Shown piece after piece: positions 55,108 through 57,885 of a DNA stretch of 64,000 nt; the first letter of the stretch is position 1; every line of letters begins with the position of its first letter. Source of the stretch: Perna viridis (taxonomy: Eukaryota); assembly GCA_037379345.1 (NCBI GenBank), contig CM074516.1, positions 28,768,001 through 28,832,000 on the forward strand, given 5' to 3'. The position numbers and the translations under genes are program-made. The notes under the pieces were generated by a model. It was not told where the DNA came from. It made no database searches and was given only the letters and a program-made list of their open reading frames with translations.

Positions 55108-55657
55108 GGCGGTTATGTTGATGATTGGAGGTTTTTACGGTCTTGACTATCCTTACGGATCTCGAACGACCGCCCCTTACGGGGATTTTGTTAGTAAATG
55201 TCTGTTAGTAGTTGGTGGTAGCGGAGCCCAGCCTTCGGGATACCCGACCGAAGAACTCAGTCAGAGTATGTCCTACTATCGGCTGGGCTGCTCTGTTGAC
55301 GCTCTGGCCTACTCCCAGATCCCACGTTGGTCCGAGAGCGTTTCCCCATTCTAGCTGTTCGGAAGTACGTCAACGTGAAGAGTGGCGGTTATGTTGATGA
55401 TTAGGGGTTATTGACGACCCTGAATACCAATACAGGCCTCTCACGGTCGATGTTAGTAGGTTAGTAGAACCAACTGGTGTTGGTGGCGGAGCCCAGCCTT
55501 CGGGATACCTGACCGAAGAACCCGGTCAGATTATGTCCTACTAGCGGCTGGGCTATTGTGTTGACGCTCTCGCCTACTCCCAGACCCCACGTGGGTCCGA
55601 GAGCGTTTCCCCACTATTAACTGTTTGGGAGTACGTCAACGTGTAGAGTGTTATGTT
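55108..55657 (-). repeat. Tandem dimer (period ~276 bp) of a GC-rich structured repeat; candidate structured RNA / retrozyme-like element
   Basis: Units start with ggcggttatgttgatgatt at 55108 and 55384. Their 3' two-thirds align closely. Several helices covary, and the wobble pattern favours the minus strand. Confidence 0.85.
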
Positions 55658-57657
55658 ATATCTATCACACCTTTTATATCCACGCGACTTTCCACCTGGT
55701 TATTTTTGCTTAGTCAATCTTAAATTTTGGTTACTCAATATTTTTGGTCAAATGATAAAAGATGTCGGTATTTAAAAGAGAACAAGAAAAGAATAGAGAA
55801 TCTTTACTGAAACTAACTTCCCGCAGAGTTATCTTTTCTTTATCTAGAAAGGTCGGAGATTACCTGCCCGGGTCAGGTGTTTCTTCCGAAACTACAAAGA
55901 AAATAGTTAGAGAGGCGTGATTAGAATACCTGTAGTAGCCATTTGTCGGTAAAACTTAACTGTATTCCGTAATAATTAAAGGCATAAACTTGGTTCTTAT
56001 TTCTATATCATCAGGAGGTGGGTCTTAATTTGTTTTAATTTTGCTCTGCAAGGTTATATGTACAGTAAAACTCTAAATGTCTTACTAAATGTCTTAACTT
56101 TGCAGTAATATTATATTAAATTGCTTTTATCAATCTTAGAGACAGTAGATAACAATCACACATTTTCCAGCATTGTCTCATCAAACCCAGAAGGCTTAAT
56201 CGAAAAGAAGTGTCACAAAAGCCTGTCTGATCATTTTTAGCGCCGGAAGTTGTAAATCGTTTTAATATAAAAATTAGACACAAAAAAAATTCAAAGACAA
56301 CACAGAAACTGACGACACCATGGAAATCAATGTCAACTACAATAGGAAACTGGTTCCTGTAAGCGTTTGATCTTCCGGGTCAAATTTTCGCGAGGCGAAA
56401 CATTATCATTAGCATCAACTTAGATTAATTCAATTAAAAGATCAAATGGTCAAAAACGAAAATTTACAACTTTTCCCCTGTGGGGTGTGTCGTATTGTTC
56501 CTGTAGTGTAAGTATTTATCGACCCTGATCTACTCGTTTTATGGCGAGTATTACAAGATTTTATTGCGTTTCGAGATAGCGACTATCTGCCAAAATGCCG
56601 AAGGAACAGTTTGAAGTTACAATTCGGAATCACCTGTAACTCCTTAATTAAGTTATCTAAATCTCGTCTCTGTGTAATCAAAACAGATTATCCTAATTCG
56701 GAGATGATTATGTCACACTTTTTACTTAATTAAAGGTATATCAAAGTATATCCATTAGAAGCAAGGCGGAAAATGGTCTTTAATTGGTATGATTTAATTG
56801 CGTCATCCTCAGAGAAAGTCGAATTCCTTTTTACTAGCTTAATCAAACCACCAATGTCCGAAAATTATTCCATTCTATTACATCTTGAATACGATCATTC
56901 AAATGAGCTTTTAATTAAAACGACGACGAAAAAAAAACAGCAAAGATTTAAAGACAAAATGAATTCATCACTTAAAACAGAATAATGATTAATTTCAAAA
57001 CAAAACATATGAAACTAGTCTTTTATTTGTTGTTTTAAATGCCAACTAACCCAGTGATCCAAACCCTACACGATCGATTGCAGGCAAGTATTCCTTTATT
57101 TTGTAACATTAGAAAGAAATAAAAACACACAACTCGAAAACTTTTAATTTTATTGTTGACCTATTAATTATGAGATTAAATCTATTGGCTTAGCAGCATG
57201 ATGATTTGTATATTATTTGGTCTTATTTGATACAACAACTCTATCGAAGGGCCACCTTCTGTCGAGATCTATTAGCCCATCATAACCAACCCGGGGAGTC
57301 ATACAACCTGGAGCGATCCCTCCATAAGATCTGTCCCGTCTGGGATTATCAGATGACAATAATTTTGTTTTGCCCGATTGACACTTATTTGCTATTTTGT
57401 CCAACTCTATGACAGCCATATTCTATTGATAGCAAGTAAGCGTGTATGATGTTGTATTATGCAATTCAAAGCGTTTTTAGGTTCTTGCAATTTAGGCGTA
57501 ATACTTTTAAAATTCTGTGATATACATACCTACATCTGCCTTGTCTTTTATATCAATTACCACTTCCTTCTTTATTAATTATTTAAATCAAAGCCTTATT
57601 TGCAAATATTACATATAAAATACAATAATTATGTATACTAAATATATGTCATTTTGC

Positions 57658-57885
57658 CGTAGACGTACTTCCAAGACAGAGTGAAGAAACGCTCCCAGAC
57701 CCACGTGGGGTCTATGAGTAGGCCAGAGCTTCTACACAGCAGCCCAGCCGCTATTAAGACATACTCTGACCAAGTTCTCCGGTCAGGTTTCCCGAAGGCT
57801 CGGTTCGGCTACCAACACAGTTGTTTCTAATATCGACCGTGAGAGACATGTATTGGTATTCAAGGTCGTCAAAAACCCCAATCAT
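57658..57885 (+). repeat. Third, inverted monomer of the same structured repeat
   Basis: The reverse complement aligns along the whole of 55397-55641 (e.g. gacccacgtggggtc, agcccagccgc, cccgaaggct, tattggtattca). Confidence 0.85.

Follow-up and report, generated by a model that had tools for sequence, protein, structure and literature searches.

The repeat that we analysed in a 64,000-nt stretch of the Perna viridis genome (hereafter the window; contig CM074516.1, positions 28,768,001 to 28,832,000) is almost certainly a dispersed non-LTR retroposon. We consider it probable that this retroposon is promoter-less, is copied by a LINE, carries a predicted HDV-like fold at its 5' end and is inserted preferentially ~21 bp downstream of a TATA box. 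A preliminary description of the window had reported a three-copy repeat with a ~275-nt monomer and proposed a retrozyme-like element with a novel fold. Its view of a mobile element with an HDV-like helix order, in which RNA structure is selected on one strand, is supported by our results. The features in the window are the following (TSD, target-site duplication).

55119-55384, minus strand: copy 1, full-length, younger head, tail type 1, 266 nt
55395-55650, minus strand: copy 2, full-length, younger head, tail type 2, 256 nt
57650-57885, plus strand: copy 3, older subfamily, tail type 2, decayed, ~236 nt
55109-55118, minus strand: 10-nt TSD after copy 1
55385-55394, minus strand: 10-nt TSD between copies 2 and 1, identical to 55109-55118
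55651-55656, minus strand: 6-nt shorter version of the same TSD, before copy 2
55672-55678, minus strand: host TATA box TATAAAA at the target of copies 1 and 2, first T 22 nt before the start of the TSD
57614-57620, plus strand: host TATA box TATAAAA at the target of copy 3, 20 nt before the TSD starting at 57634 (degenerate, read by eye)
55560-55650, minus strand: domain A of copy 2, predicted HDV-like fold overlapping the alternative pseudoknot (5' strands of P1 at 55644-55650, P2 at 55633-55640 and P3 at 55630-55632; L3 at 55623-55629)
55295-55384, minus strand: domain A of copy 1, putative catalytic C at 55306
57670-57677, plus strand: L3 loop of the older head in copy 3, UCCAAGAC, with the bases equivalent to U20, C21, C22 and G25
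55490-55554, minus strand: domain B, long hairpin, stable against shuffles (z -3.75), with an AGUA/GAA internal loop (55538-55543, 55499-55505)
55415-55448, minus strand: domain C of copy 2, 3' stem-loop
55138-55171, minus strand: domain C of copy 1
57834-57868, plus strand: domain C of copy 3

The ~275-nt monomer is replaced by lengths of 256, 266 and ~236 nt plus the 10-nt TSD. Private damage is present in all three copies, and in copy 3 both P1 and P1.1 are broken by a 4-nt deletion and substitutions. Copies 2 and 1 belong to different subfamilies and are parted by the 10-nt duplication that recurs after copy 1; the dimer arose from two independent insertions at one target, and the 6-nt version of the duplication likely reflects a second insertion at the same first nick. 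All helices named in the preliminary description are present, its coordinates for domains A and B are correct, and its strand assignment (minus for copies 1 and 2, plus for copy 3) was borne out. The domain C helices exist too, but their 3'-side arms on the plus strand begin one base before the given positions, at 55167 and 55444, with a spacing of 24 instead of 25 nt. Copy 2 is predicted to fold more stably than shuffled sequences on either strand (z -3.7 minus, -3.6 plus).

A first-look search of the 723-Mb genome with copy 2 returned 1338 candidate copies, and the 40 genome candidates that were scored share ~89-93% identity with the query over nearly its whole length. Exact pattern searches found not three copies but 230 matches to the 19-nt 5' end and 353 to tails 1 and 2, in addition to 230 matches to tail 4 and 17 to the older head, each with 0 matches to the reversed control. 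The family is dispersed, ~256-266 nt long and flanked by direct repeats (TSDs of ~11 bp), and has a (TCA)n tail and a single fixed 5' end. After removal of stacked and duplicated flanks, 114 independent insertions remained; a TSD was called in 52 of these, measuring 10-13 bp in 42/52 with a mode of 11 bp. Dispersed copies, variable TSDs and a 3' microsatellite tail mark a non-autonomous non-LTR retroposon. An A-box occurs in 2/101 and a B-box in 3/101 full-length copies, and ARAGORN detected no tRNA in the element, whose head is thus not a small-RNA head bearing an A-box and a B-box for Pol III as in tRNA, 5S or 7SL SINEs. The repeat is a LINE-dependent short retroposon with a head that is not derived from a small RNA.

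The older subfamily is more diverged than the younger one (median 0.167 vs 0.076, p 0.03), and a similarity-biased set shows no such difference (0.078 vs 0.073); the age order, old before young, is modestly supported. An Rfam search, which the preliminary description had put forward as a check, gave no match to a described family in the element or in old copies, but it also missed the sister-LINE positive control and is therefore insensitive here. A consensus of the family may already have been deposited. A metagenome pattern scan gave a single, unrelated match. Contigs from four presumed-RNA runs cover the element; strand, ends and level are unreadable from them, and they are not counted as evidence. 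At L035, L042-L044, L053, L056 and L073, a single insertion was amplified passively within a larger repeat with shared flanks, and it entered the counts once or twice only.

Domain C is a LINE-type 3' tail. Its stem exists in three paired versions across the tails (CGGTC/GACCG in 27/42, CGACC/GGTCG in 22/40 and CGTCC/GGACG in 17/20), which confirms the double compensation described between copies 1 and 2, and it is common, again with compensatory changes, to an RNase H-bearing LINE and a free-standing mini-element. This stem-loop is likely the recognition site of the reverse transcriptase. Of 30 loci with a third tail version (tail type 4), 6, all with distinct 3' flanks, extend into a shared long element. 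The remaining 24 are non-LINE loci, 20 of which have their first base in common and 4 of which are shorter; none of the 30 is of intermediate length. The long element matches RVT_1 and RNase_H and encodes an ORF1 with Cys/His knuckles, and its APE was seen only by tblastn to the sister LINE; one copy with both ends was found (L273). This partner LINE is likely a Nimb/I group element. The molluscan I-group clades are Nimb and Ingi (PMC10294476), and in bivalve Nimb tails, too, a terminal stem is described as preceding TAAA(A)CC (PMC11481361).

The 3' tail shared with the LINE is identical in the mini-element and conserved in structure, with compensation, in tails 1 and 2, and we consider it quite probable that the partner LINE mobilised all three families. 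Among the best 150 of 2456 RT candidates and 30 of 353 tail loci, we detected no LINE with tail 1 or 2 or with this head. The head has no match to the 5' end of either LINE family, and 0/11 5' ends of the partner LINE fit the HDV descriptor. Any LINE donor of the head may be extinct or unsampled, and head and tail may derive from different LINEs.

Three observations concern the LINEs and their products. The mini-retroposon (~60 nt; L092, L093, L095 and others) consists of nothing but the LINE's 3' stem-loop plus its tail; it has TSDs, and its 5' end is uniform. The family represented by L127:1204-7279 is a young, intact two-ORF LINE (APE-RT-RNase H, 1247 aa; 123 exact 5'-pattern matches), the first ~60 nt of which fit an HDV-like fold starting at C1 and which has no TATA signature; it is a candidate active Nimb-type element with a predicted 5' ribozyme. 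In one LINE copy, ~30 nt of foreign sequence (L123:4021-4050), possibly a template jump, lie between the TSD and the true 5' end, and a TATA box is positioned relative to the foreign start.

The flanks of the insertions show an A/T band at -32 to -26 from C1. TATAWA was found at -35 to -26 in 27/76 young, 3/19 old and 7/19 mini-element loci (background 2.1% of 22,701 windows), in 2/11 partner-LINE 5' ends, a weak signal, and in 0/29 sister-LINE 5' ends. These positions were chosen after the first 30 loci had been seen, and the old, mini and tail-selected sets replicate the result; new tail-selected copies have TATAWA in 4/10 and TATA in 8/10 cases (two of the ten are duplicates). In the partner LINE, the signal is present in one of two long copies with a clear TSD, most other long-copy calls having failed. 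With 0-1 mismatch, TATAWAW lies 28-35 nt upstream of 72/114 insertions (background 12.5%; sister LINE 3/29), and both targets in the window carry a TATA box. The motif has a preferred orientation (33 vs 10, p 6e-4) and starts 21 bp before the TSD on the 52 reconstructed pre-insertion sites, where no base is favoured at the nicks. The box also lies at -20 to -22 from the TSD in 4/4 copies with further truncation that were picked by eye; TATA is therefore a property of target choice and not of full-length sources. A separate 'truncated' group (1/12 with TATA), consisting mostly of internal deletions with the wrong anchor, was left out. There is hardly any doubt that the TATA-linked targeting is real. 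We found no TATA-box-directed target rule for a non-LTR element in the open-access literature searched. If real, the rule is a simple form of targeting that can be read from sequence and has no base preference at the nick, relevant to LINE biology and to RNA-templated gene insertion tools.

Under the reading that we prefer, the RNA's 5' end would originally have been set by self-cleavage before C1 from read-through transcripts, as in L1Tc/NARTc. The 3' stem-loop would be bound by the LINE protein, which would prime at the (TCA)n tail, and the integration complex would read the oriented TATA box, directly or through TBP. Nicks ~21 and 32 bp downstream of TATA, without base preference, would yield the ~11-bp TSDs, and TATA box and TSD would be regenerated upstream, so that the site could be hit again and mixed stacks could form. 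In the younger, more numerous subfamilies, the U20.G25 loop would have been lost, with cleavage likely poor, and the head would have refolded into a crossing pseudoknot. ORF2 may read the box itself or be tethered by TBP; the duplicated 11 bp correspond roughly to the region first melted at promoters, which is a hint only.

An extension of this account is that insertion captures a promoter: each new copy would be transcribed from the TATA box, with a start near +1; every copy, the 60-nt mini-element included, could then serve as a source, and the ribozyme would have become dispensable. Between the 5' junction and the T of the TATA box there are ~32 nt, close to the usual TATA-to-start distance, and the element begins with what is presumably an initiator-like YCANT motif. 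The near-absence of A- and B-boxes and the lack of a tRNA would fit such transcription, as would the common start base of type 4 loci with no intermediate lengths and the decay of the ribozyme loop in the more numerous subfamilies. However, every family member starts with C, whereas transcripts of polymerases II and III mostly begin with a purine; copying of a capped template frequently adds a G, yet G stands at -1 in only 9%, and the pre-insertion site has no initiator bias. Promoter capture is a tentative possibility; if the box does drive transcription, this would explain how SINEs lacking Pol III boxes come to be expressed. More speculative still is the general scheme in which LINE integration is aimed by TATA, possibly via TBP, with the first base of each insert at transcription-start distance, passengers without a promoter, as short as a 60-nt stem-loop, gain one with each insertion, and the HDV-like ribozyme, once essential, decays and refolds into a new pseudoknot.

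The TATA peak is unlikely to stem from nothing more than a broad preference for nucleosome edges or for DNA that is AT-rich or bendable. AT-only heptamers are enriched too (49/76 vs 24%) and a perfect TATAWAW is present at only 30/114 sites, as such a preference would have it, but TATA is over-represented even among AT-rich windows (47/71, 66%, vs 811/3443, 24%) and poly-A/T runs are not (5/71 vs 15%). The strand orientation of the motif and its absence from the sister LINE argue in the same direction.

Domain A, which had been put forward as part of a novel fold, maps onto the known HDV-like fold. On the sense strand, counted from C1, the predicted structure is a nested double pseudoknot composed of P1 (1-7:32-38; 6 or 7 bp) at the putative cleavage site, P2 (11-18:83-90), P3 (19-21:29-31) with L3 (22-28), P1.1 (23-24:39-40) and P4 (46-57:63-74), with C79-A-G-A immediately before P2. 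In HDV-like ribozymes, the catalytic C in J4/2 has the pattern C-N-R-A. The statement that no HDV J4/2 exists in the repeat does not extend to the family, which reads C-A-G-A at this place, position 79 being C in at least 92/101 copies; only copy 2 has its putative catalytic C replaced by G (window 55571).

The descriptor that we used was composed from known HDV features after the element had been seen. Its strict version, with P1 at +1, matched 24/76 young copies, 1/19 old copies and 0/20,000 shuffles and missed the positive control (0/29 sister-LINE copies). A looser version matched 27/76 element copies and 23/29 copies of the control, against a background of 0 anchored and 8 anywhere per 20,000 shuffles and 0/76 on the antisense strand.

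In the older subfamily, which includes copy 3, the loop is 8 nt long and carries U and G where HDV has U20 and G25, the G25-equivalent being present in 17/21 old rows (the search pattern preset the U in 17 rows, but not the G); the subfamily also has Watson-Crick pairs at 50:70 and 52:68 and a compensated P2 pair. The younger subfamilies lack this U20.G25-type loop: U22 is changed to C, the G is deleted and two P4 pairs are turned into wobbles, and each of the three substitutions strengthens the crossing helices. Fast cleavage is lost in a related ribozyme when G25 is mutated to A (PMC13635239), and young heads are therefore likely poor cleavers. That the element starts with a pyrimidine does not speak against cleavage, since the mapped cleavage site of ingi-clade ribozymes lies before C1 (PMC4035085, PMC3185411). 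Against the HDV-like reading, the old and type-1 subfamilies have U.U as the seventh P1 pair, which leaves six pairs, a 4-nt deletion destroying P3/P1 recurs in all subfamilies (~7/54, 9/47 and 6-7/21), and only the one old copy still matches the strict descriptor in full. Judging from sequence, the head very probably derives from an HDV-like ribozyme; the chances that the old-type head is active as a ribozyme appear even, and activity of the young-type head seems improbable. The two subfamilies would lend themselves to a comparison of a ribozyme before and after a switch of fold.

The crossing pseudoknot, on which the earlier interpretation of domain A was built, most likely arose secondarily, as an alternative fold, in the younger subfamilies. 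We doubt that it is the sole functional fold, serving for example RNA stability or binding of the translation machinery, with the HDV match as a by-product of three similar internal motifs that pair in several ways. In a young copy, no single helix is more stable than its 8-bp helix 18-25:68-75 (-11.6 kcal/mol vs -7.6 for P1 and -8.3 for the outer P4), and this helix is intact in all subfamilies, in which the P3/P1-killing deletions recur; the second helix, however, breaks in the older subfamily, and P1 exactly at +1, the adjacent P3, GG, C-N-R-A and the old-type U..G loop are left unexplained. One crossing helix described as 8 bp has 6 bp in the family, because the completing G is private to copy 2; the completing pair is formed in 1/30 rows. 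Paired cells amount to 91.9% for the HDV-like and 87.6% for the crossing fold, and P4 pairs 50:70 and 52:68 remain paired across subfamilies while crossing-fold pairs 50:80 and 52:78 are broken in 12 and 11 of 30 rows. The covariation of the closing helix (gtTga/tcAac vs gtAga/tcTac) was recovered as a subfamily difference (U-A in 20 and A-U in 9 of 30 rows); domain A has a single clear double-sided change, which is common to both folds. Resemblances to RNase P/MRP, twister, pistol and IRES were rejected, the conserved bases being absent, as was a hammerhead reading of GAAAC...GUC, which has no core upstream.

Outside the window, nine tail-TSD-head junctions were found in 6 other loci, and one element copy directly precedes a LINE 5' end. 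The stacked members are different subfamilies or the LINE itself, and the stacks thus speak for repeated insertion at one site and against multimeric RNA. Unequal recombination between TSDs has been proposed for same-family arrays (PMC11481361), but it would not mix subfamilies. The supposed tandem array of one monomer is likewise made of copies that differ in subfamily, with a TSD between them. Retrozyme-like replication through circular or multimeric RNA, suggested by the tandem copies in the window and the structured ~260-nt monomer, is very improbable and already largely refuted: the copies are dispersed with fixed, non-permuted ends, TSDs and a microsatellite tail, stacks mix subfamilies or include the LINE, the CUGANGA hammerhead core is absent from the sense strand, as had been noted (0/101 copies), and a single ribozyme at +1 would cut the 5' end only.

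Animal non-LTR retrozymes (PMC7229834) are similar in size, non-autonomous and ribozyme-bearing (predicted here), whereas our element has no hammerhead core and shows fixed ends with TSDs, a LINE tail and independent tandem insertions. Parallels are also seen in NARTc, RIME and SIDER with the Pr77 HDV-like ribozyme (PMC3185411, PMC4035085, PMC3820030), which are likewise non-autonomous I-group partners, have a conserved motif upstream of the insertion, form tandem stacks at one target and include some copies with inactive ribozymes. Their HDV-like fold, which cleaves before C1, and their near-fixed 12-bp TSD have counterparts in the predicted fold and the ~11-bp TSD of our element. Upstream insertion signatures are known for ingi (PMC3820030); those of NARTc, RIME and SIDER are T-rich or G/T, whereas that of our element is a TATA box. 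These trypanosomatid elements share their 5' end with the LINE, while for this element, in an animal genome, no LINE with its head was found. Bipartite non-autonomous LINEs and R2 SIDEs (Kojima 2018, PMC5786205; PMC3414825) combine a LINE-type 5' ribozyme module with a LINE 3' tail and no ORF; PMC5786205 reports bipartite LINEs only for RTE, Ingi, Vingi and R2 and does not mention Nimb. The RTE 'Tn-TA' signature also places a motif whole helical turns from the nick, as a thymine stretch ~10 bp upstream plus TA at the nick (PMC13295347), unlike the oriented TATA ~21 bp upstream and the lack of base preference at either nick seen here. Ty3 and TRE5-A likewise insert at a fixed distance from a transcription-factor site; their targets are tRNA genes, whereas our element lands at dispersed, unique sites that resemble a TATA box.

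LP-SINEs of gastropods and bivalves (Matetovici et al. 2016, PMC4758252) are likewise short and TSD-flanked, with a head that is not a small RNA, a Nimb/RTE-related context and 3' short tandem repeats. Their head starts with CCCCCTG, unlike that of our element (compared by eye and word search), the head and tail words of our element are absent from three of the four supplement files, and our element lacks the ~70-bp LP head homologous to Nimb-17_LMi, I-3_DR and RTE-9_CPB. The main text of that study proposes the LP head as a promoter and does not contain 'TATA'. The predicted ribozyme of the sister LINE begins like this CCCCCTG of the LP head (PMC4758252, supplement Fig. S2), and the LP head could be an HDV-like ribozyme candidate rather than only a promoter. 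More generally, the so far unexplained LINE-derived heads of molluscan SINEs are suggested as ribozyme candidates.

Elsewhere in the window, at 38621-39049, a 48-bp unit is tandemly repeated nine times, with reading frames open on either strand. In domain B, the AGUA/GAA internal loop is presumably a loop-E-like motif, as had been suggested, and both of its strands are exact in 47/101 copies. Two ACUAAC motifs, which we take to be branch-point or STAR-protein-like, lie between domains B and C in the window (55185-55215 and 55449-55470, minus strand), and at least two are present in 65/101 copies.
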